Source: Oscillatoria sp. PCC 10802 | GTDB taxonomy: Bacteria; Cyanobacteriota; Cyanobacteriia; Cyanobacteriales; Oscillatoriaceae | Length of the DNA stretch: 64,000 nt | Direction of reading: 5' to 3' | Assembly: GCF_000332335.1 (NCBI RefSeq) | Contig: NZ_KB235948.1 | Location: 4,286,977 to 4,350,976, forward strand | Shown: piece by piece, positions 36,099 to 64,000 of the stretch | How positions within the stretch are numbered: position 1 is the stretch's first letter | Layout: each line of letters opens with the position of its first letter | Position numbers and translations under genes: made by a program | The notes under the pieces: model-generated | Told to the model about the DNA's origin: nothing | Seen by the model: the letters and a program-made list of their open reading frames with translations, nothing else | Databases searched by the model: none

Positions 36099-36420
36099 TC
36101 CCCTGGCAATTAGCTAGGTTCCAGGCGATTGGAAATCGCGGCTATACAAACGAAGCCCGCCTTCGCGGGCTAAGAGTATATTGAGACTCTCAAAATCTGC
36201 GCGGTTTTCCTCGTTGCGCAGTTTTCCTTGTTCCTTCGTCCCCTGGCAATTAGCTAGGTTCCAGGCGATTGGAAATCGCGGCTATACAAACGAAGCCCGC
36301 CTTCGCGGGCTAAGAGTATATTGAGACTCTCAAAATCTGCGCGGTTTTCCTCGTTGCGCAGTTTTCCTTGTTCCTTCGTCCCCTGGCAATTAGCTAGGTT
36401 CCTGGTGATTGGAAAGAGAC
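36099..36420. repeat. Tandem direct repeat, 140-bp period x2.3, made of MITE family B units (GATTGGAAATCGCGGCTATACAAACGAAGCCCGCCTTCGCGGGCTAAGAG)
   Basis: CCCTGGCAATTAGCTAGGTTCCAGGCGATTGGAAATCGCGGCTATACAAACGAAGCCCGCC... recurs at 36101, 36241 and 36381. Copies 1 and 2 are identical. Confidence 0.85.
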
Positions 36421-36761: not shown

Positions 36762-39125
36762 TCATGCAAACCACCGGCGAATTAACTCCACCTGGAAGCG
36801 GAAACCGTCACCGGCATGTTCAATGAGTTCGCGGCGCAAAAGCAGGTTGAGGGTGCTGTCGAGGCTGTCGGGTTCCTCGCGGGAGAGAAATTGCCGGCTG
36901 GCTGTTGCGCGTTCCCCCTGTGCGGCGATGCAGCGCAATACGGCTAGCCCACCGGCATCTATTTGGTTGCGTTCGATGTCGGAGAAAAAGAAACTGCCAC
37001 TTTCTAAAGCACGCGGCACTGCAGCTTCTATATCGGCTAAGGTGGCAAACCGGCGCACTGAGGGATCTTGCTCGTTTTTGAGAATGACAATCTCGTTGCA
37101 GAGGAGTTGCACCAAAAAGGGGTGATGGCGGGTTAAATCTAGAATTCGCTGCACCGCATCGGGTTCATAGCGCAGGGTAAAATCTTTGATGGGGCGCTCT
37201 ATCAGCTGACGCGCTTCCGGTTCTCTCAGGTAGCTGATATGCACGACTTGCACGTTGATCAGGTAGCTCGCCCAGCGCTGAAATTCCTCTATCGTGTGGG
37301 AGCCGGCGAGCAGCACTTTGAAGCGGGGGCGGTGCTGGATTAAGTGGCGCAGCATTCCCAAAATTCGCTCTTCATCAAAGCGTCCTTTCCTGATGGCGCT
37401 GTCTAAAGCCTCGAATTCATCCAAGGCAAGCAGGGCGGTATTTTGTTCGAGTGTATTTTCGACTTCATCTAACCATTCGTCGAAGCCGGTGAAGGGATCT
37501 GCTGCTAGGGTTTCGCGGGGGAGGGGCGGCAGATTCAATTCGCTCTGTCGCTTGGCTGAGTTTATCATGCCTCTAGCGAGGTTGTAGAGAAAACCTGCCG
37601 GGTCACTCGCCTGTGATGCCGGTCCTTGCAAGTCCACAAACATGGGGATGATGCTGTTGGGGAGGAGGCGTCCGAGGTTGTTGAGAAGGGAGGTTTTGCC
37701 CATGCGCCGCTGACCGTAGAGTAGCAGAGGGGGGCGACGCCGGTCTAGCAGTAATTGCTCGATGCGCTTGCCAATCTCAGTGCCGCTGATATCAGCGGGT
37801 TTGACAAAGATTTCCTGCTGCTCATTCAGGGGGATGCCAGTGATGTAGGGGTTGTCAATCTCTTGGCGGAGTTCAGCTTCTTTTGCCAGTTCGGACACAC
37901 GCTCGGCAAGAATTTGATGCCAGCGGAGGGCGATGGGCTGAAACCGAACCGCGTATTTGTTGCTGCTGCGGGTTAAGTACCGCAACTGAGCTTCTAAACG
38001 GTCTGCAACAGCGCTGAGCGCTAGACGCTTGTTATAAGCACTTTCCTGATTGAGAGCAGCGTCTGCATCCTCGCTGATGCGACTGAAGATGCGGATCACT
38101 GCGCCGGCTGGGCTTTGCAGTTCGCTAATAACCAGACTGCGGTGAGCATTACGGATGGCTTCCACATCCGCACAGTTTTCTAAACTCCGTGCGTCCAGTT
38201 CAATTTGTGCCGCCTGTGCCGCCCAGCGCTGCCGGCTGGTACTCAGATATTCGATGGCAGCTTTTCCCTCAGCTGGGTTGCGCTCCATCACTAAAAGGAG
38301 ATGCTTGTCCAAGTCATATAGGGGAATGCGCTGCCACTCATCCCAAAAGGCAGAATGCCAGCGCAACAGACTGGGTTGAGTGCCTGTTCGTTTTTTGTCC
38401 AGTTGATACAGGAGGATATTCCATACGGTCAGGAAGGGATAGAGTACCGCTGGTAGCCACAAGTTTACAGTTACTCCCACGCCCGACGCCACGCCGAACG
38501 CCACGCCCCACGCCACGCCCGACGCCACGCCCAACGCCACGCCCAACGCCACGCCCAACGCCACGCCCCACGCCACGCCCCACGCCACGCCCCACGCCAC
38601 GCCCCACGCCACGCCCCACGCCACGCCCAACGCCACGCCCGACGCCACGGCCCACGCCACGGCGAACGCCACGCCCGACGCCACGGCCCACGCCACGGCG
38701 AACGCCACGCCGAACGCCACGCCGAACGCCACGCCCCACGCCACGCCCCACGCCACGGCCCACGCCACGCCGAACGCCACGCCCCACGCCACGCCGAACG
38801 CCACGGCCCACGCCACGACACGAAAAATTTTGTCAGCTGGCTCGCCCAACCCCCACAGCACCAATCCGAGAAGCAAGTTAGCCAGGACAGGGGAGAGCAG
38901 GTATCCTTGGAGCCGCAGCCGCCACAGAGCGAAGTTCCGCCAGCGCCCCTGTCTAATCAATAAAATCAGAGAGGAGTTAGGCTTCAAATCGGGGTCAATC
39001 CTGGTTATGTGATTGCGGAAAGCTGTGGGGCGGAAAAAAACCCAGAACATCAGTTGCAGCGTGCCCAGAATTAGGTTGGGGTGCTGCTCGGGTGCGTTGG
39101 TGTAGGCGTTGCGCGGGACGTTCAT
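36762..39125 (-). CDS. Membrane glycine-zipper tetrapeptide-repeat protein fused to C-terminal P-loop AAA+/STAND-like ATPase (novel architecture)
   Basis: 787 aa. Domain order:
- N-terminal conserved domain [39 protein letters not shown], shared with the paralog at 40861..42357.
- Hydrophobic helix [19 protein letters not shown].
- About 29 uninterrupted [G-V-A-(W/F/L/S)] repeats (aa ~141-259; about 35 units when flanking degenerate ones are counted).
- Conserved middle domain [67 protein letters not shown].
- ATPase with Walker [19 protein letters not shown] and Walker [12 protein letters not shown]. Confidence 0.8.
38476..38818. repeat. 12-bp tandem repeat (GCCACGCCCCAC / GCCACGCCGAAC variants), about 29 units, inside the CDS
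   Basis: Runs of identical consecutive units, for example cacgccccacgc at 38560-38620. On the minus strand it encodes [12 protein letters not shown]. Confidence 0.95.
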
Positions 39126-39141
39126 GCTAATTCTTTACCTG

Positions 39142-40233
39142 TCACTCCAACAAATGTTTGAAGCCCTGTATCTGCCGTAAACCTTCTTTGCGCCAGCCGT
39201 CTCCAGTTTCCCCATTTTCCAGACTAACCAATCGTTCTCGACAGAGGATTTGCAGCAGAAGTGGCCATCGTCCGCTCTGGGTGAGAATCCACTCTACATC
39301 CTCATCTGGGAAGGTCATCGGCGAACCGGCAATCAACTCACGCGCCTCTGCCTCTGTCAGCGGCCCCAAAGTCGCGCTATATCCGAAAATGTTGAAAAAC
39401 GGAGAACTGTGCTTGGTGTTGTGAGCCAGTTCAACCGGCGATTCCGGCGCTGCCAGCACAAACGCCAGATTTCCACCGGCATAATTGGTTGCCCAAGATC
39501 GCAAACACTCCCAGAACCCATCATCTAATTCTGGACAGCGTTGCAGTGCGACGCCTATCTCATCCAGCAGGATAACTGTGGGCGAGTGCAGCTTGTCGCC
39601 AACCGCATCCATGAAGCGATCCAAATCGCAGGGGTTGGGCACCGGCACACCCAGCTCCTTTAATATGTAGCTTAGCAACCCCTCCCGGCTGTGCCGGCGG
39701 GTATCTTGGAAGTCTGCGAAAATCCAGCGATAGCGTTGTGGATGCGGCAGCCAGTCGGACTTTTGGCCAGGGCGCAACTGTGCCGGTGGGGTGGTGGTGA
39801 TGTTTTTCAGGTAGTGCAGCAGGGAAGTCTTGCCGGTGCGCTTCTTGCCGATAATGGCGGCGTTTTGCAGGGGGTGGCGTTTCAGCAAGCCGAAAATGCG
39901 TTGAAGTTCGTAGTTGCGCCCAAAGAACTGGCGAGGGTAGGTGATGGGGTTGCCGGTGATGAAGGGCGAGAGTTCCTCAATGGGTGCCGGTGGGGGTTGT
40001 GGATCTTCCTCTTCTTTACAGGCTATTTCTTGCCAGTCAAACCCCAGTTTCTCGCTGAGTTCTACAAAATTCAGATAATCAACGGGTTGGCCACCGAGGA
40101 AGTTCTTGACGGTGGACAGAGATAGTCCTACCGCGTCAGCCAAAGCTGCCTGGCTGGCATGGCCCTTAAGCTTGAGGGCCGATTTTACTTCATTGATGTA
40201 CTCTGGGGCAACCTTGTTCGACCGCGACATCAC
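39142..40233 (-). CDS. HTH (XRE-type) DNA-binding domain fused to AAA+ ATPase domain
   Basis: 363 aa. N-terminal helix-turn-helix SQAALADAVGLSLSTVKNFLGG. Walker A NAAIIGKKRTGKTSLLHYL. Walker B PTVILLDEIGVAL. It ends 16 nt upstream of the Gly-zipper/ATPase gene on the same strand, so a two-gene operon is likely. Confidence 0.8.
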   Translation of the reverse strand: MMSRSNKVAPEYINEVKSALKLKGHASQAALADAVGLSLSTVKNFLGGQPVDYLNFVELSEKLGFDWQEIACKEEEDPQPPPAPIEELSPFITGNPITYPRQFFGRNYELQRIFGLLKRHPLQNAAIIGKKRTGKTSLLHYLKNITTTPPAQLRPGQKSDWLPHPQRYRWIFADFQDTRRHSREGLLSYILKELGVPVPNPCDLDRFMDAVGDKLHSPTVILLDEIGVALQRCPELDDGFWECLRSWATNYAGGNLAFVLAAPESPVELAHNTKHSSPFFNIFGYSATLGPLTEAEARELIAGSPMTFPDEDVEWILTQSGRWPLLLQILCRERLVSLENGETGDGWRKEGLRQIQGFKHLLE

Positions 40234-40386
40234 TGTTCCCAGGAAGGACTATCCGATTATAGAGCTTTTTTCCAGCCCAACCACAAGTCATCCCTAAGTC
40301 ATCTCAAAGTCACCTGTTTCCCACCCCGCATCTGAACCAGCGCTAGGTTTAGATGGAATTGTAGAGCTCAAACCGACTAAAACGCC

Positions 40387-40710
40387 ATGTTGAATGAAAC
40401 CCCAAACACCAACCAGACGTTACCCTCTACTTCGGAACCTGATGACGCTGTTCTGGACATGGAGCGAGAGTTCATGGAAGAACGTTTGCGTCAAGCTCGT
40501 CTCAGCTTCAACCTGACTCTCATACTGACAGCCGTGAGTGCTGTCATCAGTGTTGTGGGTGTCGGACTTTTGTTTGCGGGGAAAGTCCCGGAGGGAAGCG
40601 TCACGACAGCTGGGGGGTTGAGTTGCAACATTGTCAGCTTATTAAGGCTGACTAAGGAAACCAATGACCGGCTGGACAAAATGGCTCAGGAGTTCAAGGA
40701 CGAAGATTGA
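40387..40710 (+). CDS. Small membrane-anchored protein, hypothetical
   Basis: 107 aa. Acidic N-terminus, predicted amphipathic helix, one transmembrane segment LTLILTAVSAVISVVGVGLLFAG, short basic/acidic tail. Divergent from the HTH-ATPase gene and convergent with the paralog. Confidence 0.45.
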   Translation: MLNETPNTNQTLPSTSEPDDAVLDMEREFMEERLRQARLSFNLTLILTAVSAVISVVGVGLLFAGKVPEGSVTTAGGLSCNIVSLLRLTKETNDRLDKMAQEFKDED

Positions 40711-40760
40711 CAAAGTAGGGTGGGTTACGCGTCATCTATTATAGCACATAATGGGTTGGG

Positions 40761-40779
40761 TGAGAAACCGGGTTTCTTG
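40761..40779. terminator. GAGAAACCGGGTTTCTTGG half-palindrome between convergent genes
   Basis: Lies between the stop of 40387..40710 (+) and the stop of 40861..42357 (-). A member of the GAAACCCGGTTTC family. Confidence 0.35.
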
Positions 40780-40860
40780 GGGGCTGGGGGGTGGGTTCCG
40801 CCAAGCGAGATTTTCGCACACAAATCAGGGGTGCTGTCAGGCGGAACCCACCCTACTTAA

Positions 40861-42357
40861 CTACAGGGGGCGCTGTGTGTCCGGTAGCATGTGGGGGCTA
40901 CCGGCTTGTTGGTCAATTTTTGCCGCCAATTCGCGCACACAACCGGCTACAATCTCATACCAGCGAAGAGCAATCGGGTAAAAACGAAGGGCGTCTTTAT
41001 CGCCGCAGGCGGTTAACTCCCGCAAGAAGTTATCCAGATTCTGCGCGACAGCGCTGAGGGCTAGCAGCCGATTAAAGGCACTCTCCTGACTCACACCGGC
41101 ATCTACTTCTTGGCTAATCTGGCTAAAGCTGATCAGCCAAACACCGGCAGGGCTTTCTGAATCACCGGCACCCAAGTTTTGGTGTGCGTTACTGATATCT
41201 CGCACGCCCCCACAATTTTCTAAACTCCTGGCGTCTATTTCAATCTGCGCTGCCTGCGCCGCCCAGCGCTGCCGGCTGGATTTCAGGTAGTTAATTGCGG
41301 CTTTTGCTTCATCGGGATTGCGGTCCAGTATCAAAATCAGGTGTTTGTCTAATTTGGGGAAAGGCAAAAACTGCCACTCATGCCAGAATGCGGAGTGCCG
41401 GTGCAGCAAACTGAATTGACTCCCGGCAAATCGTTTATCCAGTTGATAGAGGAAGATATTCCATACTGTTAATAAAGGATAAAATACTACCGGCAGCCAA
41501 TAGTTGACAGACACTCCCAGCGCGAACGCCACGCCCGAAGATACCCCCGACGACAGGCCAAATGCTAAGCCCAAGGTGACAATCGACGCCAAGCGCCACC
41601 CGACGCGCCACGCGATGTCGGGCGAGACGCCGGGAACTGCGCCCGACACCACGCCCAAGGTGACGCCCAAGGTGAAGCCGGACATCACGCCCAACACCAC
41701 GCCCAAGGCAAGACCGGATGTCAAGCCCGACACCACGCCGGATGACATGTGAAACGCCACGCCCAACCCAACGCCAAACACGACGCCCAACCCGACGCCC
41801 CACCCCACACTCCGCCTGGCGCTGAACCCCGGACTCAAGGTGACGCCCAGGACTGCGCCCGACGCCGCGCCCAACCCGACGCCCCACCCGACGCCCCACG
41901 CGAACCCCAAGGCCAAGTTGAGGGCCACGCCCCACGCCATAGCTAACCCGACGCCCAAGGTGACGGCTAGGGCCACGCCTGAGGCCACGCCCCACTGCAC
42001 GCCCGACGCCACCCACGATGTCAGCCCCCACCACACGCCGGACGCCACGCGCCAGAAAATGATTTCTTTTGATTGGCCGAGTGCGGACAGTATTAAACCC
42101 AGGATTGAAAATGCCAGGAAAGGTAATATTAAATATTCCTGGATTAGCAGTCGCCACAAAGCCCAGTTGCGCCACCGCAAACGGGTGCCCTGTTGCCGAT
42201 TTGGGTCTAAGGCGGGGTCAATGCGGGTGAGGTGGTTGCGCCATGCTGAGGGGCGGAAAAAAAGCCAGAACAGCAGTTGCAAACTGCCCAGAATAATGTT
42301 AGGATGTTGTTCGGGGGCATCTGTGTATGTGCTGGGTGGAATAGTGGGAGAGGTCAT
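40861..42357 (-). CDS. Paralog of Gly-zipper repeat membrane protein, lacking the ATPase domain
   Basis: Start taken at the ATG at 42357 (MTSPTIPPSTYTDAPEQHPNIILGSLQLLFWLFFRP, which aligns with the N-terminus of 36762..39125). Degenerate GVxxGVxx glycine-zipper region of about 190 aa. Middle domain shared almost motif for motif (YWLPVVFYPLLTVWNIFLYQLDKR...[37 protein letters not shown]). Ends before any Walker motifs. The upstream 126 nt of the track ORF lie in a MITE and are rejected. Confidence 0.7.
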   Translation of the reverse strand: MTSPTIPPSTYTDAPEQHPNIILGSLQLLFWLFFRPSAWRNHLTRIDPALDPNRQQGTRLRWRNWALWRLLIQEYLILPFLAFSILGLILSALGQSKEIIFWRVASGVWWGLTSWVASGVQWGVASGVALAVTLGVGLAMAWGVALNLALGFAWGVGWGVGLGAASGAVLGVTLSPGFSARRSVGWGVGLGVVFGVGLGVAFHMSSGVVSGLTSGLALGVVLGVMSGFTLGVTLGVVSGAVPGVSPDIAWRVGWRLASIVTLGLAFGLSSGVSSGVAFALGVSVNYWLPVVFYPLLTVWNIFLYQLDKRFAGSQFSLLHRHSAFWHEWQFLPFPKLDKHLILILDRNPDEAKAAINYLKSSRQRWAAQAAQIEIDARSLENCGGVRDISNAHQNLGAGDSESPAGVWLISFSQISQEVDAGVSQESAFNRLLALSAVAQNLDNFLRELTACGDKDALRFYPIALRWYEIVAGCVRELAAKIDQQAGSPHMLPDTQRPL

Positions 42358-42460
42358 GGATGCTTCTGGTTGATTCACCTTAATAATGAACCGCCAAGAC
42401 GCGCCAGCGGTTTCCCGTAGGGTAAATGCCAAGTACGCCAAGTTTTGCCTGGTTCCGGGC

Positions 42461-42692
42461 GATTGGAAATCGCAGCTATACAAACGAAGTCCGCCTGCGC
42501 GGACTAAGAGATTTTGCTAAGTTCCAGGCGAATGGAATTCGCGGTTCCAGGCGAATGGAATTCGCGGCTATACAAACCAAGTCCGCCTACCCAACGGGCA
42601 CGGGCTTCGCCCAACGCGGACTAAGAAAAGAGGGAAATTCTTGAAACCCGCGCAGGCGGGTTTCGTCTGTATAGTTGCGGTTTCAACCGCCG
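42461..42692. repeat. MITE family B composite copy (direct 30-bp duplication plus inverted terminus)
   Basis: GGTTCCGGGCGATTGGAAATCGCAGCTATACAAACGAAGTCCGCCTGCGCGGACTAAGAG...GTTCCAGGCGAATGGAATTCGCG x2 ... CGCAGGCGGGTTTCGTCTGTATAGTTGCGGTTTCAACCGCC. It flanks the 5' side of the Gly-zipper paralog. Confidence 0.8.
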
Positions 42693-42707: not shown

Positions 42708-44567
42708 CTAAGCGCTGACAAAGGAAACGGCGACGCGAAATCCGAAGCGGTTATTCCGGATTTCTGGCACAACCCTGCAGCGGAAAGCGGAACGGCAATC
42801 CCTGGGGTTGCTGAACCAAGAACCCCCGCGCAGCAACCGGCGATTTTGATTGCCACCGGCATCCCAAACACCCCCATCCGCTAGCGCACCGGCATAATTA
42901 TCATGCCACGGATCGGCGCACCACTCCCAGACATTCCCGTGGGTGTCGTACAAACCAAAAGTGTTGGCTGGAAAACTCCCCACATCTGCTGTCTGTTTGC
43001 TATAGGTTCCTTTGGGTTCAGAAGCGTAAGTATAGTTGCCGTGATAATTAGCTATTTCAGTTGTAACTGTCTCGCCAAAGTGGAAGGGCGCAGTGCGGGT
43101 GTCCTCGCCGGCAGACGCACGACAGGCATATTCCCACTCAGCTTCGCTGGGTAAGCGGTAGTTGCGCCCGGTTACTTGGGAGAGTCGCGCACAAAATTCG
43201 ACAGCATCGTACCAGGATACATTCTCCACCGGCCTGTTTGCGCCTTTGAAATAAGACGGATCGGGATTTAAATCCAGGTACACCTTGGGTAGGGCTGCGA
43301 CAGCTTTCCACTGCGCCTGTGTTACGGCATATTTCCCCATAAAAAAGGGCTGCACTTTTACCAGGTGCTGCGGGCTTTCTTCATTATATCGCCCTGACTC
43401 AGTTTTTGGGGAACCCATCAGGAAAGTTCCCCCTGGAATCGACACCATTTCCAAGGGCACCCCACTGCCAGCGTCTTGGGCAAAGTATTCCGCTTGCCGG
43501 CGCGTGCGGCTGATTTCTCGCCCGTAAGTGTCTACGGTAATAGCGTCGAAGGCAAACTGCTGCAAGGGTGTTTTGCCTGAGGGGGGAGAGGTGCTAACCG
43601 AAAGGGGAACTCCCGACGTTAGCAATCCAATCCCGGCAAAACCGGCAGCTTTAAAAAGTTGCCGGCGTGTCGGGGAATCCTCTTTTATCAGGGAGGAAAC
43701 CGCTTGCAGCGCTTCCACTGCTGACGGGTAGCGCCGGCGGGAGTCACGGCGCACCATTGTGTCTAAAATCTTGGCCAGCTGGGGGCTAACTCGCACTTTG
43801 TTGCGCCAGATAATGTCACCCGTCTGGGGATTTTCTGGCAGTCGCCGGGGAAAGATGCCGGTGAGTGCTTGAATTGCTGTCATTCCCAGAGCGTACACAT
43901 CGCTGCTAAACTGGGGGTTGCCCTTCGCTTGCTCATTTGGCATGTATCCGGGGGTGCCAATCCCAACTGTTAAATTCGCCTGAGTTGGCGCACTCACCAC
44001 TTGGGTGCAGACTTGCTTAATTGCGGCAAAGTCTATCAAGACAATTTTACCATCTTGGCGGCGTCGGATTAAGTTTGCCGGTTTGATATCGCGGTGGATC
44101 GCACCCTCCTGATGCGCGTGAGAGAGGACTGTCAGCACATCCAGCAAAAAGGCAATCACCCGTTCTTCCGTCCACCGGCATCCCGGTTTGATTTCCGCGC
44201 ACAAGTCCTCGCCTTCTATAAAGTCTCGCACGAGATAGAACTCTTGATTCTCCTCGAAGTGAGCTAGGACTCGGGGAATTTGGTCGTGTTCGCCCAATTT
44301 GTGGAGGAGTTTAGCTTCCGTGTCAAATAGGGTTCTGGCAATCTCCAACGCGGACAGATTGTTGGACAGGGGTTTGAGCTGTTTGACGGCGCAGGTAGGA
44401 CTATCTGGCAACTGGGTGTCAGAGGCGAGGAAAGTTGACCCAAATCCCCCGCCTCCCAAGTGTTTGACGATCTTATATCGCCCCGCAATGGTTGTTCCCA
44501 ACATGTGTTTCATGCAGTTCAATGGCAAGTTTCGCTCTAGGATACAGCCTTTGCGCACAAATGTCAA
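42708..44567 (-). CDS. Ser/Thr protein kinase fused to C-terminal formylglycine-generating-enzyme (FGE/sulfatase-modifying factor) domain
   Basis: 619 aa. Kinase subdomains GGGGFGSTFLA, VKQL, HRDIKPANLI, DFAAIK, GTPGYMPNEQ. C-terminal FGE fold (YAVTQAQWKAV...NVSWYDAVEFCARLS...RLPSEAEWEYACRA...RGGSWFSNPRDCRSAFR). Confidence 0.85.
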   Translation of the reverse strand: MTFVRKGCILERNLPLNCMKHMLGTTIAGRYKIVKHLGGGGFGSTFLASDTQLPDSPTCAVKQLKPLSNNLSALEIARTLFDTEAKLLHKLGEHDQIPRVLAHFEENQEFYLVRDFIEGEDLCAEIKPGCRWTEERVIAFLLDVLTVLSHAHQEGAIHRDIKPANLIRRRQDGKIVLIDFAAIKQVCTQVVSAPTQANLTVGIGTPGYMPNEQAKGNPQFSSDVYALGMTAIQALTGIFPRRLPENPQTGDIIWRNKVRVSPQLAKILDTMVRRDSRRRYPSAVEALQAVSSLIKEDSPTRRQLFKAAGFAGIGLLTSGVPLSVSTSPPSGKTPLQQFAFDAITVDTYGREISRTRRQAEYFAQDAGSGVPLEMVSIPGGTFLMGSPKTESGRYNEESPQHLVKVQPFFMGKYAVTQAQWKAVAALPKVYLDLNPDPSYFKGANRPVENVSWYDAVEFCARLSQVTGRNYRLPSEAEWEYACRASAGEDTRTAPFHFGETVTTEIANYHGNYTYASEPKGTYSKQTADVGSFPANTFGLYDTHGNVWEWCADPWHDNYAGALADGGVWDAGGNQNRRLLRGGSWFSNPRDCRSAFRCRVVPEIRNNRFGFRVAVSFVSA

Positions 44568-44730: not shown

Positions 44731-46386
44731 CTACCGGCTCTCAATGCTCAAATCCACATCTGCCGGTGTAAAATATAACTGGGCGCTGCCCTCACTCAAG
44801 GCGGCAATGGCATCCTGTTTCCGCAAAGTATTAAAAATCGCCAGCTTCTCCGATGCTGGCATGCCATTCCCCAACCCGTCAAAGAACGCCCTGACGCGAA
44901 TTGCCTCCGCCTCACCGGCAGTTACCGCCTCGGTTTGCGCGTGCTGCCGGCGCAAGTCCAGCAGCTGTCCCTTCAGCCGCTCAACTTCAATCTCCCCCTC
45001 TATCTCCTTAAGTTTAACATCATTATCGCCCTCCTGTTTCTGCAGCCGGTTCAGCCGGTTTGTCGTCTCCTGGATAATCTCTAGCAAAATCCGCTGCGTG
45101 TCCGGATCTTTGCAAGCGACTGAGCGCACTTCCACCGCATGAAGCGCCACCCCACGCTCGGCATAAAAGCTGTCCTCCACGCCCAGCACCGCCTGTCTGA
45201 CTATGGCATTAAACCCCGCCAGAAATCTTTCCAGCGATACCTGCGATACGGACTGAATAATCAGGCTGCGAGCGTGGGCGCAAATCGCGCCGGTGGTATC
45301 ATCTGTCGCCTGAATCATGGCAGCTACATCCACAATCTGCCAGAAAAACGTCAAGCCGATAATCAATTCTACATTATCCTGCGTTCGCGCTTCAAACTCG
45401 TACCACATGAATTTGGGTCGCCCGTCAATGTGGGTGAAGATGAGGTTTTTCTCGTTTTTGTGCAGCCCGCTGGCCCACCGGAATTCCACCAGCTCCTCAT
45501 ACGGCTGCAAAAAGAAAGACCGTTCATCACCTGTTCCCCGTTTTATGCTATAATCTCCAAAGCGGTCTTTGACGACGACCGTTTCGTGATTCTCCAGCAA
45601 AATGCGCTGGCGCACTTCTACGATTTCTTGATTCGCCTCCGGACAGAAAACCTGCGTCTCTGTTATCAATCGTAGCGTGCCAGTTTGCGTGTCCCGCACC
45701 AGGACTGCAGTGTGTTCGTCAATATTGACCCCTTCCCCGATGCTGCTTAAAATATCTTCGATAATCTCTTCCGCAGGAGTCAGGTAGAAACTCCTCTCGC
45801 CGCGCTCCACGCGAATCATGCCGGTGCTTTTATCAATCACCTTGACATACTGATTTTGCTGCAGTAAAATAGGAGTGCGGAGTTCGACAATTTCCTGATT
45901 GGCAGCTGGAATGAACACTTGGGGGTCGGAAATCAGCTGCAGTTGGCCGGTGGAAATATCTCGCACCAGCACCGCTGTTCCCTCATCAATATTGACACCC
46001 TCCCGCACCGGCTCTAGAATCTGTTCAGTGGGGTTGAGACAGACACTGCGATCTCCTCTTTCCACCCGAATCGCGCCGGTGCGCTTGTCAATTAGCCGGA
46101 TGTACTGGTTGCTTTTCAGGGGGATGGCGGAAAGCTGTTCCAGGATTTCCTCACTCGCCGCCGGGAAGTACAGCTTGGGGCCAAATTCGTTGCGCAACTC
46201 GCCGGTGAGGGTGTCGCGCAGGCGCAGGTATTCGGTTGGCCCAAGGGTTTTGGCCTTGCGGCGCTGCACCCGCCACCAGGGCTGGGAGTAAAACACAGCG
46301 GGCCCATTCACTGTCCACCGGCGCGTGAAGCCCTCGACGAGCAGCTGTTCGTCTTCTTTGAGATAATATATCCAGGGCAAAAACAT
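44731..46386 (-). CDS. Major vault protein (MVP) homolog: MVP repeats, band-7-like shoulder and cap-helix
   Basis: 551 aa. At least 5 MVP repeats of about 45 aa (YIRLIDKRTGAIRVERGDRSVCLNPTEQILE, VKVIDKSTGMIRVERGERSFYLTPAEEIIEDI, KRGTGDERSFFLQPYEELVE; compare eukaryotic MVP KGEKSFFLQPGEQLE). Shoulder region GAICAHARSLIIQSVSQVSLERFLAGFNAIVRQAVLG (compare [37 protein letters not shown]). Then a coiled-coil cap-helix. Confidence 0.8.
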   Translation of the reverse strand: MFLPWIYYLKEDEQLLVEGFTRRWTVNGPAVFYSQPWWRVQRRKAKTLGPTEYLRLRDTLTGELRNEFGPKLYFPAASEEILEQLSAIPLKSNQYIRLIDKRTGAIRVERGDRSVCLNPTEQILEPVREGVNIDEGTAVLVRDISTGQLQLISDPQVFIPAANQEIVELRTPILLQQNQYVKVIDKSTGMIRVERGERSFYLTPAEEIIEDILSSIGEGVNIDEHTAVLVRDTQTGTLRLITETQVFCPEANQEIVEVRQRILLENHETVVVKDRFGDYSIKRGTGDERSFFLQPYEELVEFRWASGLHKNEKNLIFTHIDGRPKFMWYEFEARTQDNVELIIGLTFFWQIVDVAAMIQATDDTTGAICAHARSLIIQSVSQVSLERFLAGFNAIVRQAVLGVEDSFYAERGVALHAVEVRSVACKDPDTQRILLEIIQETTNRLNRLQKQEGDNDVKLKEIEGEIEVERLKGQLLDLRRQHAQTEAVTAGEAEAIRVRAFFDGLGNGMPASEKLAIFNTLRKQDAIAALSEGSAQLYFTPADVDLSIESR

Positions 46387-61515: not shown

Positions 61516-61960
61516 CCCACCGGCATTCTATCACAGAGGTGCCGGTGCATACCGTTTGTAGTTGGGCTTTAGCCCTAAAAGACTTCTACTTCTAGGGAAT
61601 ACTCTGAAGGCGGAACGCACCACCGGCACTCGTTGGGGCGGGTTTATTCAGATGTTGGGTTGTGGGGGAAAGATTTCGCGTGAGCCCGCCCCCACCGGCA
61701 TTCTATCACAGAGGTGCCGGTGCGTGCGAGACACCGGCACTCGTTGGGGCGGGTTTATTCAGATGTTGGGTTGTGGGGGAAAGATTTCGCGTGAGCCCGC
61801 CCCCACCGGCATTCTATCACAGAGGTGCCAGCGGGTGCAAGATGCCGGTTTTCGTGGGGTGGGGGCGGGTTTATTTAGATGTTGAGTTGTGTGGCAAATA
61901 TTTCGGGCGAACCCGCCCCTACAATATTCGGCATTCTATCACAGAGGTGCCGGTGCGTGC
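61516..61960. repeat. Tandem repeat, period about 112-122 bp x4, each with a GGGGCGGGTTTATTCAGATGTTG...GCCCGCCCC hairpin
   Basis: The anchor CGGCATTCTATCACAGAGGTGCC recurs at 61521, 61696, 61808 and 61930. Confidence 0.85.
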
Positions 61961-62102
61961 CGTTTGTAGTTGGGCTTTAGCCCAAAAAGGTTTGTAGTTG
62001 GGCTTTAGCCCAAAAAGGTTTGTAGTTGGGCTTTAGCCCAAAAAGGTTTGTAGTTGGGCTTTAGCCCAAAAGTTTGTAGTTGGGCTTTAGCCCAAAAGTT
62101 TG
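61961..62102. repeat. Minisatellite GTTTGTAGTTGGGCTTTAGCCCAAAAAG, 26-28 bp x5, each with a GGGCT-TT-AGCCC hairpin
   Basis: Directly abutting units with no spacers, so not a CRISPR array. A solo unit lies at 61556..61583. Confidence 0.85.
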
Positions 62103-62262
62103 TAACACTCGTTGCGGCGGGTTTATTCAGATGTTGCGTTATGTGGCAAATAGTTCGGGCGAACCCGCCCCAAGAGGCATTCATGGGGGCGCTAAAAGCG
62201 CGGTGCGTTCCGCAGAAGCGCGACTTCTACTTCTGCGGAATCCTCTCAACGCGGAACGCACC

Positions 62263-64000
62263 CTACTCTTTGAGCAAGCGCTTCAGTTCCTCATCCGTGA
62301 AGGGATTCGTCCCCGCTTTCAGGACGTCAACCCAGCGCTGCCTTTGCGATTTTGCCTTCTTATAATAATCCTTCATCCAAGAAGGCTGATTGTCAATCCA
62401 AGCGATAAATGCCTGGAAGTCCTCAATCGCGCCTTTTGGGTTGCCGGTGAGCGCCCGGGCAATGCCGCGACTATCCCGATACTCTATATTATAAGGCTGA
62501 AGCGCCACGGATTTGTCGCAGACAAATAGCACGTCTTTGGCGTGCCGGTGCAAACTGCCGTACCGGCAGAGAGTATTCCAAGAATTCGCTGAAATGTCAA
62601 AGTTTGGGTCGAACTTTTGGGCTTGTGCGTAAGCGGCGATGGCTTCCCTCACCTTGCCTTTCCGGACAAGCGCTTCTCCCTTACTCACTAAAACGGGTGC
62701 CGGCTCAAAGTCGGGGTCGAGTTGCAATGCCTTCTGAAATTCCGCCACCGCAGCTTCAATATTGCCCTCTTCGGCAAGCTGTTCGCCCTTCTTAACTCGT
62801 TCGGAAGCTTCTGCTAATTGCTTGGCTTTGGTTTCTGGATTGAGGGGTAAGCCCGGATTCCACTTTAAGGCGGTGCGGAACGTAGCAACTGCCTCCTCAA
62901 CATTGCCTCCTCTCGCTTCCGCCTCCCCTTGCTCAACCAAAAATGGCGCGGCTGCCAGCCGGTTGGATTGGGTTTGGCACACTTCTAGTTTTTCCAAGTC
63001 TTTGGGATGGGTGACAAGGTAATCGTTCAGCCAGTTGCAACCGCGCGCCAGCAGTTCATCTAAGCTGTCAGCCCGCCACAGCCGGATTGTACCGTCAGAG
63101 GAGGCGGTGACGATGCGCTTTCCGTCGGGGCTGAAACTGGCGCTGATGACAGGACCCTGATGCCCTTTTAGCTCGGACAGCAGCTTGCCGGTGCTGTCCC
63201 ACACCCGGGCTGTATTGTCAGAGGAGGCGGTGACGATGCGCTTTCCGTCGGGGCTGAAACTGGCGCTGATGACATAACCCTGATGCCCTTTTAGCTCGGA
63301 CAGCAGCTTGCCGGTGCTGTCCCACACCCGGGCTGTTTTGTCAGAGGAGGCGGTGAGGATGCGCTTTCCGTCGGGGCTGAAACTGGCGCTGGTGACAGGA
63401 ACTTTTAGCTCGGACAGCAGCTTGCCGGTGCTGTCCCACACCCGGGCTGTTTTGTCCCAGGAGGCGGTGAGGATGCGCTTTCCGTCGGGGCTGAAACTGG
63501 CGCTGATGACATAACCCTGATGCCCTTTTAGCTCGGACAGCAGCTTGCCGGTGCTGTCCCACACCCGGGCTGTTCTGTCAGAGGAGGCGGTGAGGATGCG
63601 CTTTCCGTCGGGGCTGAAACTGGCGCTGATGACAGCACCCTGATGCCCTTTTAGCTCGGACAGCAGCTTGCCGGTGCTGTCCCACACCCGGGCTGTACTG
63701 TCATAGGAGGCGGTGAGGATGCGCTTTCCGTCGGGGCTGAAACTGGCGCTGATGACATAACCCTGATGCCCTTTTAGCTCGGACAGCAGCTTGCCGGTGC
63801 TGTCCCACACCCGGGCTGTTCTGTCAGAGGAGGCGGTGAGGATGCGCTTTCCGTCGGGGCTGAAACTGGCGCTGATGACAGCACCCTGATGCCCTTTTAG
63901 CTCGGACAGCAGCTTGCCGGTGCTGTCCCACACCCGGGCTGTTTTGTCATCGGAGGCGGTGAGGATGCGCTTTCCGTCGGGGCTGAAACTGGCGCTGGTG
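62263..64000 (-). CDS. WD40-repeat protein with C-terminal TPR-like region (N-terminus beyond window end)
   Basis: At least 12 near-identical WD40 units (ARVWDSTGKLLSELKGHQGxVISASFSPDGKRILTASSD). Then TPR-like helices (GNIEAAVAEFQKALQLDP, GKVREAIAAYAQAQKFDP). Then a conserved tail. The repeat DNA continues to base 64000, so the real start lies outside the window. Confidence 0.85.
   Translation of the reverse strand, partial: TSASFSPDGKRILTASDDKTARVWDSTGKLLSELKGHQGAVISASFSPDGKRILTASSDRTARVWDSTGKLLSELKGHQGYVISASFSPDGKRILTASYDSTARVWDSTGKLLSELKGHQGAVISASFSPDGKRILTASSDRTARVWDSTGKLLSELKGHQGYVISASFSPDGKRILTASWDKTARVWDSTGKLLSELKVPVTSASFSPDGKRILTASSDKTARVWDSTGKLLSELKGHQGYVISASFSPDGKRIVTASSDNTARVWDSTGKLLSELKGHQGPVISASFSPDGKRIVTASSDGTIRLWRADSLDELLARGCNWLNDYLVTHPKDLEKLEVCQTQSNRLAAAPFLVEQGEAEARGGNVEEAVATFRTALKWNPGLPLNPETKAKQLAEASERVKKGEQLAEEGNIEAAVAEFQKALQLDPDFEPAPVLVSKGEALVRKGKVREAIAAYAQAQKFDPNFDISANSWNTLCRYGSLHRHAKDVLFVCDKSVALQPYNIEYRDSRGIARALTGNPKGAIEDFQAFIAWIDNQPSWMKDYYKKAKSQRQRWVDVLKAGTNPFTDEELKRLLKE
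63090..64000. repeat. Coding tandem repeats, about 123-bp period, over 90% identical (WD40 blades)
   Basis: GCGCTTTCCGTCGGGGCTGAAACTGGCGCTGATGAC recurs about every 121-126 bp. Confidence 0.9.

Follow-up and report, generated by a model that had tools for sequence, protein, structure and literature searches.

Classical contingency loci are built of 1–7 bp units whose gain or loss shifts the reading frame or changes promoter spacing, with high-frequency on/off switching as the outcome. With these and other described systems we compare a 12-bp coding array in the window, by which we mean the whole analysed stretch of 64,000 nucleotides of Oscillatoria sp. PCC 10802 (contig NZ_KB235948.1). The array lies in the N-terminal part of a predicted NTPase gene (the focal gene):

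36762..39125, minus strand: membrane-anchored STAND-type P-loop NTPase, 787-residue open reading frame (ORF) holding the array (ORF list, Pfam and homologs)
38478..38813, minus strand: coding minisatellite of 28 complete in-frame 12-bp units, GCG-(TGG/TTC/TTG/TCG)-(GGC/GCC)-GTG, 336 bases

The explanation we favour, and hold to be probable, is that this is a coding minisatellite with DNA-level turnover of its units, situated where the N-terminal part of a cyanobacterial STAND-type NTPase is embedded in the membrane. Contingency loci and in-frame variable-number tandem repeats resemble it in their coding tandem units and in a copy number that varies between related strains. The 12-bp unit, however, is always in frame, and the product is an inner-membrane hydrophobic segment instead of a surface antigen; classical contingency loci share only their tandem-repeat mutability with it.

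In evolutionary behaviour, the closest analogue is the repeats with high internal conservation (HIC) of NLR-type STAND proteins. HIC systems include the WD40 repeats of the Podospora HET-E/NWD proteins and the WD40/TPR arrays of cyanobacterial and actinobacterial NLR-like proteins; in the HIC repeats of fungal NLRs, instability goes with internal homogeneity (bioRxiv 10.1101/2025.09.29.679196). Common to both are a STAND NTPase host, a multicellular organism, a within-gene unit identity of 80–100% and few variable positions per unit, as well as concerted evolution, repeat-number polymorphism and shuffling (bioRxiv 10.1101/2025.09.29.679196). The focal unit, however, has 4 residues (12 bp), whereas HIC units have 34–42, and HIC repeats form a soluble C-terminal β-propeller or solenoid sensor, whereas the array is hydrophobic, N-terminal and located between membrane segments. 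The unit identity by which HIC repeats are recognised (~70–80%) is reached, with 89% DNA matches; the array is not a superstructure repeat (WD40, TPR, ANK, LRR) serving as C-terminal sensor. Homogenised yet variable repeats, known for soluble WD40/TPR NLR sensors, thereby extend to a four-residue hydrophobic unit in the membrane part of a STAND NTPase.

In sequence pattern, the GlyZip domain of calcyanin (CcyA) is the closest analogue. Each is a long apolar segment with Gly or another small residue at every fourth position that far exceeds classical transmembrane glycine zippers in length, and a compact membrane-embedded helix assembly is proposed for each (PMC8890360). Calcyanin differs in having three conserved motifs of ~50 residues, each with a central Gly-Pro, which is absent from the focal array; its length is conserved and tracks the species tree, and it has neither a DNA-level tandem repeat nor an NTPase fusion. 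Transmembrane glycine zippers (GxxxGxxxG) of channel-forming proteins, as PMC8890360 relates them from Kim et al. 2005, have about three steps at most and span the membrane once. The small-xxx-small periodicity that permits close helix–helix packing is shared, but the 28 consecutive steps of the array (112 residues) cannot form a single span. As with calcyanin, the arrays offer a natural length-and-composition series for the folding of very long small-xxx-small membrane segments.

The nSTAND1 NTPases and TRADD-N-associated components have been described as belonging to conflict systems, for immunity or cell death, in multicellular bacteria (Kaur et al. 2021, PMC8195603). The locus has in common with them a STAND-like P-loop, a CyanoTRADDas_TM neighbour, kinase-FGE genes nearby and its occurrence in filamentous cyanobacteria (PMC8195603). 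Unlike those systems, the focal protein has an nSTAND1 match just below the cut-off, and the three-gene module to which it belongs is without a TRADD-N, death-like or enzymatic effector domain. No published description of the membrane array or of the module as such was found in the literature searched.

Composition of the array

Tandem Repeats Finder reports a period-12 tract at 38477–38817 (28.4 copies, 89% matches, 0% indels, score 486), in essential agreement with the first-pass annotation of this DNA, which had placed about 29 units at 38476–38818. The 12-bp periodicity is far above chance, since 295 of 329 array positions match the base 12 nt away, whereas spans of the same length across the window have a mean of 90.8 matches (standard deviation 17.8); the runner-up span, with 201, is a truncated paralog of the focal gene. 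The coding strand of the array is 58% G and contains no A. Its product is (A-[W/F/L/S]-[G/A]-V)28, residues 105–216, i.e. 112 residues of the 787-residue ORF. Six unit types are present:

AWGV: 9 copies
AFGV: 5 copies
AWAV: 4 copies
ASGV: 4 copies
ALGV: 4 copies
AFAV: 2 copies

Nine of the 12 unit positions are invariant and the variable ones are positions 5, 6 and 8. Ala is always encoded by GCG and Val always by GTG (28/28 each). No synonymous (wobble) variation was found among the 28 units: all variants change the residue (TGG, TTG, TTC and TCG for W, L, F and S; GGC and GCC for G and A). The longest run of identical units is AWGV five times, which gives perfect periodicity over 71 nt; there are also three consecutive ALGV units, and one 36-bp block is present twice in tandem. 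The first-pass annotation was right that the tract is coding and in frame, with one 12-bp unit per small-xxx-small step, and came close with its runs of 5–6 identical units; the recent DNA-level expansion that it proposed is borne out by the runs of identical units, the tandem 36-bp block and the uniform codon set. It had allowed only wobble and W/F/L variants, and of these the W/F/L variants are seen and the wobble variants are not, while Ser and the Gly-to-Ala change had been overlooked.

All 28 units carry a small residue at the same position (Gly in 22, Ala in 6), which gives a (G/A/S)xxx(G/A/S)xxx(G/A/S) motif. The mean Kyte–Doolittle hydropathy of the array is 1.7, and no charged residue is present between residues 103 and 242 of the protein. 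The array is part of this uncharged stretch of 140 residues, which is flanked by the conserved N-terminal membrane domain on one side and the conserved membrane segment on the other. Other frames also run through the repeat (a PTPR repeat ORF on the plus strand, 38189..38881, and GRGV and WRGA frames on the minus strand); they were rejected because they are limited to the repeat, whereas the 787-residue frame is conserved end to end across homologs.

Unit turnover among relatives

The syntenic ortholog of Oscillatoria princeps RMCB-10 has 795 residues and 30 units, compared with 28 in the window, and is found identically on an 8.6-Mb contig (L001) and in an independent scaffold (L005). Its array has 14 unit types, arranged differently; by position, just the two final units (AFGV-ASGV) agree with the window. 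The flanking coding sequences are 89.7% (312 nt, 5') and 95.9% (1,716 nt, 3') identical, and no indel is present in these 2,028 bases. Array length thus differs between relatives whose flanks are free of indels, as had been expected, and the comparison of repeat counts in orthologs that had been suggested reveals changes in both count and order.

Four proteins of Nostoc sp. DedQUE02/03 (717, 753, 753 and 773 residues; one 90%-identity cluster) are identical outside the array, and their differences, a 36-residue deletion and a 20-residue duplication, are both confined to it. The deletion junction lies within the locally repeated sequence VVGGVGVGV. Whether the forms are alleles or artefacts, it is the array that is fragile. 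All length differences observed (8, 20 and 36 residues) are multiples of 4, which agrees with the earlier statement that every gain or loss of a 12-bp unit stays in frame. Length differences in the 90%-identity clusters 1, 2, 8 and 9 are due to start-codon annotation and not to the array. An ortholog from a metagenome-assembled genome (MAG) of an uncultured Oscillatoria sp. (L006; contig CAZJNL010001155.1, positions 1–640, coverage ~3) is 93% identical in the C-terminal part and has an in-frame deletion of the second hydrophobic helix together with the entire array (...GWRNPAV|QWLPVVLYPFL...). No long k-mer is shared across the junction, so that a genuine deletion allele is more probable than an assembler shortcut. 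Flank patterns common to the window and the O. princeps ortholog had no match in two metagenome scans.

Codon use separates the array from the rest of its gene. In the window gene, GCG makes up 28 of the 34 Ala codons of the central region and 9 of 56 elsewhere. GTG accounts for 28/31, 33/33 and 14/15 of the array Val codons in Microcoleus K4-B3, A006_D1 and OTE_8, against 2/29, 2/28 and 1/26 outside the array. Arrays in several genera share the GCG/GTG/GGC codons against the usage in the remainder of each gene, and this uniformity argues for a process at the DNA level. In Oscillatoria PMC 1068.18 (L022) the array Val codon is GTA throughout (GTG 2/23; Tandem Repeats Finder consensus GTAGCGTTGGGC), and this synonymous change has swept through the array, as expected of concerted evolution. 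The same 12-bp unit persists across genera whose NTPase parts have diverged by 26–38% in protein sequence; the DNA itself may be under selection, or arrays may be exchanged among paralogs or among genomes. The ratio of nonsynonymous to synonymous change (dN/dS) among units is uninformative: no synonymous change in five is expected by chance with a probability of ~0.24, and the test is powerless because 4–5 mutational events followed by amplification account for all unit types.

Degenerate arrays differ from homogeneous ones in their stability. The window contains an example:

40861..42357, minus strand: truncated paralog, 498 residues, with N-domain, degenerate array and helical middle but no NTPase (alignment)

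The paralog is 50% identical to residues 3–428 of the focal protein, and its product is identical to WP_017718322.1 (Kamptonema formosum / Oscillatoria sp. PCC 10802). Its period-4 region is longer (33 small-xxx-small steps), its 12-bp arrays are short (2–4 copies) and the GCG/GTG/GGC codon bias is partly eroded, in keeping with the earlier view of an older, degenerate version of the repeat. No repeat-region indels are found in its cluster (10 sequences, 90–100% identity). Array indels are likewise absent from clusters 1 and 4, which have degenerate arrays at ~90–95% identity with 36–45 substitutions; cluster 4 comprises two full-length proteins of 780 residues and one truncated protein. Homogeneous arrays vary and degenerate arrays are without indels, and instability therefore tracks homogeneity, with degenerate arrays being stable in length. 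The paralog is itself conserved at ~90% identity in several relatives.

Host protein and competing explanations

Besides the array, the following parts of the focal protein are recognised:

38814..39125, minus strand: conserved N-terminal domain, residues 1–104, with a hydrophobic helix at ~74–93 (alignment A2, hydropathy)
38394..38477, minus strand: conserved membrane segment just past the array, residues 217–244, followed by a positive-charge cluster (alignment)
36762..37778, minus strand: C-terminal NTPase module, residues ~450–787, with Walker motif and winged-helix-like end (Pfam, Foldseek)

In alignment A2, the invariant columns of the N-terminal domain are Y8, P12, H15, N17, I19, Q24, W28 and N38, and the Walker A motif GQRRMGKTS is also invariant. 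The NTPase (residues ~450–770) matches AAA_22 in Pfam (1.7e-7, 32 bits, cut-off 27); many homologs have a precomputed PF20703 match and are named nSTAND1 by NCBI. No TPR, WD40 or LRR domain was found in the focal protein with Pfam, and the sequence ends with the NTPase and winged-helix module; the tripartite layout of effector, NTPase and C-terminal repeat sensor is thus not seen. Gly-zipper families are absent from the Pfam matches at E ≤ 0.01, and a PDB sequence search with the focal protein gave no meaningful match. AlphaFold2 was run on the full protein with 56 sequences (mean predicted local distance difference test, pLDDT, 61.5). Foldseek matches of the C-terminal module include ORC subunits/Cdc6, Aeropyrum ORC2, NRC3/NRC4, CED-4, Apaf-1 and Avs3/4, with probabilities of 0.93–1.0 (0.99–1.0 except for Apaf-1) but low TM-scores, the latter owing to the low overall confidence of the model.

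A search with the 570 residues after the array retrieves more than 1,654 homologs, ~62–74% identical, nearly all from filamentous cyanobacteria (Microcoleus, Nostoc, Calothrix, Scytonema, Coleofasciculus) and mostly named 'AAA family ATPase' or 'nSTAND1 domain-containing NTPase'. The common layout is an N-domain of ~100 residues, a variable hydrophobic centre, the conserved segment TINLWLPVVLYPFLTxWNxLLYQLDK with basic residues, a helical middle and the NTPase. In the best 120 homologs, 149 to 337 residues separate the N-terminal from the post-array anchor. Most members have the period-4 pattern G-[V/L]-[A/V]-x, in which the position before each Gly is the most variable of the family (3.46 bits, against 2.5–2.7 bits); in some members, two or three T4SS-pilin-like (PF18895) hairpin modules stand in place of the array. 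A search with the 102-residue N-terminal domain retrieved only 13 short fragments, uninformative on alternative architectures. Family members 65–66% identical in the NTPase part are also present on Chloroflexota-binned contigs (L020, L023 and L025; Anaerolineae and Caldilineaceae MAGs), two of which (L020 and L025) have the upstream HTH-AAA partner gene; these represent either horizontal transfer or mis-binned cyanobacterial contigs. Microcoleus sp. ARI1-B5 (L027 / P0153) and ARI1-A5 (P0001) have 24-bp, 8-residue units with polar residues, GGVASNFM and VWGVVRNV. The number of SNFM units appears to differ between these sister strains (at least 4 in a row against 3), P0001 being truncated at a contig end.

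In the explanation we favour, and as the comparison of relatives shows, the array changes at the DNA level: whole units, and small blocks of them, are duplicated, lost and reshuffled. Replication slippage or unequal recombination between units is the likely cause. Single-base changes of TGG to TTG, TCG or TTC and of GGC to GCC create new unit types, which are then amplified; units stay near-identical within one gene through concerted evolution while number and order diverge between close relatives. With a unit of 12 bp, no such event takes the NTPase out of frame. The folding of either strand does not exceed that of shuffles (z = 0.9), so that a DNA hairpin is not indicated as slippage driver, and no canonical G-quadruplex motif (loops ≤7 nt) is present in the array, whose mean G4Hunter score is moderate (1.07); misalignment of identical units is therefore the simplest mechanism. 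Loops of up to 12 nt must be admitted before any G-quadruplex motif appears, and this weak candidate was not used.

At the protein level, 112 residues as one helix would measure ~170 Å, several bilayer thicknesses. The array must therefore fold back or take another arrangement, and the 'tunable-length membrane segment' of the first-pass annotation, with the glycine zipper as one helix, is implausible. Most plausibly, the stretch would form several tightly packed membrane helices. In a putative NTP-driven conflict module of the focal protein, the HTH-AAA ATPase encoded upstream and the divergently encoded CyanoTRADDas_TM protein, it may be the part that inserts into the membrane and there oligomerises or forms perforations. 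Unit turnover would then vary the size and lining of the membrane part between lineages, either selected or merely tolerated. In a further-reaching version, to which we give little credence, the array would be the first membrane-embedded HIC module in a prokaryotic NLR-like system, with which lineages rapidly retune the size, the lining or an intramembrane recognition surface of a helix bundle that forms a pore or senses, and its unit would be kept across genera by selection for instability or by array exchange.

Several observations weigh against the favoured explanation. The nSTAND1 match of the focal protein (PF20703; 2.6e-5, 24.5 bits) is below the cut-off of 27.1 bits, and C-terminal sensor repeats, typical for STAND immune proteins, are absent. 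PADLOC matched no defence model on the focal protein (best E-value 0.0016, P-loop only), and the function proposed for the module comes only from domain context. AlphaFold2 gives the array a pLDDT of 31–47 and models it as two helices of 66–71 residues, which is not credible. Ongoing instability is deduced by comparing different species and different assemblies: the Nostoc DedQUE forms come from short-read metagenome assemblies and are either real alleles or artefacts, and Scytonema sp. HK-05 has identical arrays in two independent assemblies.

The first-pass annotation had called the tract a contingency tract. A true contingency locus would show clonal length change at high frequency, selected as bet-hedging, so that subpopulations differ in the length of the membrane segment. 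The 71-nt perfectly periodic run with its tandem identical units and blocks, the ortholog two units apart, and the two assemblies each of Nostoc DedQUE02 and DedQUE03 that differ in array length are compatible with this. We nevertheless consider it rather unlikely: the on/off switching that defines classical loci is impossible with a 12-bp unit, which cannot alter the reading frame; two independent short-read data sets are identical to the window across four initial units plus 3.7 kb of flanking sequence; the two Scytonema HK-05 assemblies do not differ; and the differences that are seen lie between species or draft assemblies, for which an ordinary minisatellite mutation rate suffices. It is unlikely, too, that the array exists but its 28 units in this order are an assembly artefact of collapse or expansion. 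Concern on this point, already voiced in the first-pass annotation, is real. In two independent short-read Logan assemblies of the same strain (SRR3926829 and SRR29904083), the contigs stop 360 nt into the focal gene, and the Logan contig, 100% identical to window positions 38766..42487, ends after the fourth unit and, at its other end, inside a dispersed 140-bp element (42451–42495). Moreover, 13 of the 120 best homologs start inside their own array, N-terminal fragments of 96–158 residues are common in databases, and the 787-residue product has no exact match in the protein collection, from which the 795-residue O. princeps ortholog is absent as well. The ORF is, however, intact and in frame, the O. 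princeps array is similar in kind and size and the same in two independent records, and variant units are numerous enough in the array for reads a few hundred bases long to be placed. For annotation, the warning is that short-read genomes often have members of this family (more than 1,600) mis-assembled or cut short at the array, and that array length is not to be trusted without long reads.

The two remaining alternatives concern selection on the protein. If the array were the sensor of an NLR-like protein, with the position before Gly under diversifying selection, it would be a hypervariable recognition surface that senses inside the membrane. It is indeed the sole hypervariable part of a protein with no C-terminal sensor domain, variation is focused on one of four unit positions both within the array and family-wide, the correlation of internal conservation with length polymorphism resembles that of fungal NLRs (bioRxiv 10.1101/2025.09.29.679196), and a WD40 array with high internal conservation is present in the same window. 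Yet the residues at the variable position are mostly single-base neighbours of TGG, for which mutation and amplification are enough without selection; only 4–5 independent events are available, which leaves selection tests powerless; hydrophobic units of four residues leave little surface by which anything could be recognised specifically; and unrelated hairpin modules replace the array in some members. We regard this alternative as quite improbable. Constraint on the protein alone, with selection keeping the period of 4 and the DNA repeat being old, stable and incidental, would fit the family-wide small-residue pattern, which is kept even where the DNA repeat has decayed, and the stability of degenerate arrays. 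It is very improbable given that the uniform codons within arrays contradict the usage of each gene, that a synonymous GTA sweep is seen in one lineage (PMC 1068.18), and that the order is scrambled and two units differ from an ortholog with a 96% identical 3' flank.

Gene neighbourhood and other repeats in the window

The genes next to the focal gene and the truncated paralog are:

39142..40233, minus strand: HTH and AAA ATPase gene, 362–363 residues, ending 16 nt upstream of the focal gene (Pfam)
40387..40710, plus strand, divergent: 107-residue CyanoTRADDas_TM protein with two transmembrane helices (Pfam PF20712 at 1.5e-18)
42708..44567, minus strand: Ser/Thr kinase-FGE-sulfatase protein

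On the minus strand, the order is kinase-FGE-sulfatase, truncated paralog, HTH-AAA ATPase and focal gene. By tblastn, the HTH-AAA gene is found directly upstream and on the same strand in ~30 fetched family loci from many genera (53–92% identity), and the CyanoTRADDas_TM gene is found in the matching position in 14 fetched loci. By these shared positions, the CyanoTRADDas_TM protein, the HTH-AAA ATPase and the focal NTPase form a module conserved across filamentous cyanobacteria; its reading as a conflict module follows from the conflict systems described in PMC8195603. The module is an uncharacterised candidate conflict system that can now be tested. PADLOC gave nothing meaningful on the paralog, the HTH-AAA protein and the protein with two transmembrane helices, and an Rfam scan of 35–45 kb of the window found nothing.

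The kinase (42708–44567) matches PADLOC PD-T4-6 models at 1e-95. Wherever fetched loci reach further, the truncated paralog adjoins a Ser/Thr kinase fused to an FGE-sulfatase (C-type-lectin-fold) domain (cf. L041, L042); this architecture is a known target of diversity-generating retroelements. Beyond the kinase, a 551-residue protein (44731–46386, minus strand) has weak matches to the repeat and shoulder domains of the major vault protein and to SPFH/Band 7, and is 93% identical in O. princeps, where it lies beside kinase-FGE genes.

Other repeats are also present. The 140-bp element (GGTTCCAGGCGATTGGAAATCGCGGCTATACAAACGAAGCCCGCC...) occurs in 2.3 tandem copies at 36099–36415, just 3' of the focal gene, and a third copy with 3 mismatches is found at 42451–42495, just 5' of the paralog, so that the copies flank the four-gene block; a related 23-bp repeat in two copies is located at 42521–42567. 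The second array of the window with high internal conservation is a 123-bp repeat at 63076–63997 (7.6 copies, 93% matches), which encodes WD40 repeats (ORF 62263..63933, minus strand; Pfam 2.5e-85, 7 stretches) like those known from NLR-like proteins. Between the ammonium-transporter genes and this WD40 gene, at 61621–62104, lie a 111-bp repeat in three copies (86% matches) and then a 28-bp repeat in 5.2 copies (98% matches, GTTTGTAGTTGGGCTTTAGCCCAAAAAG).

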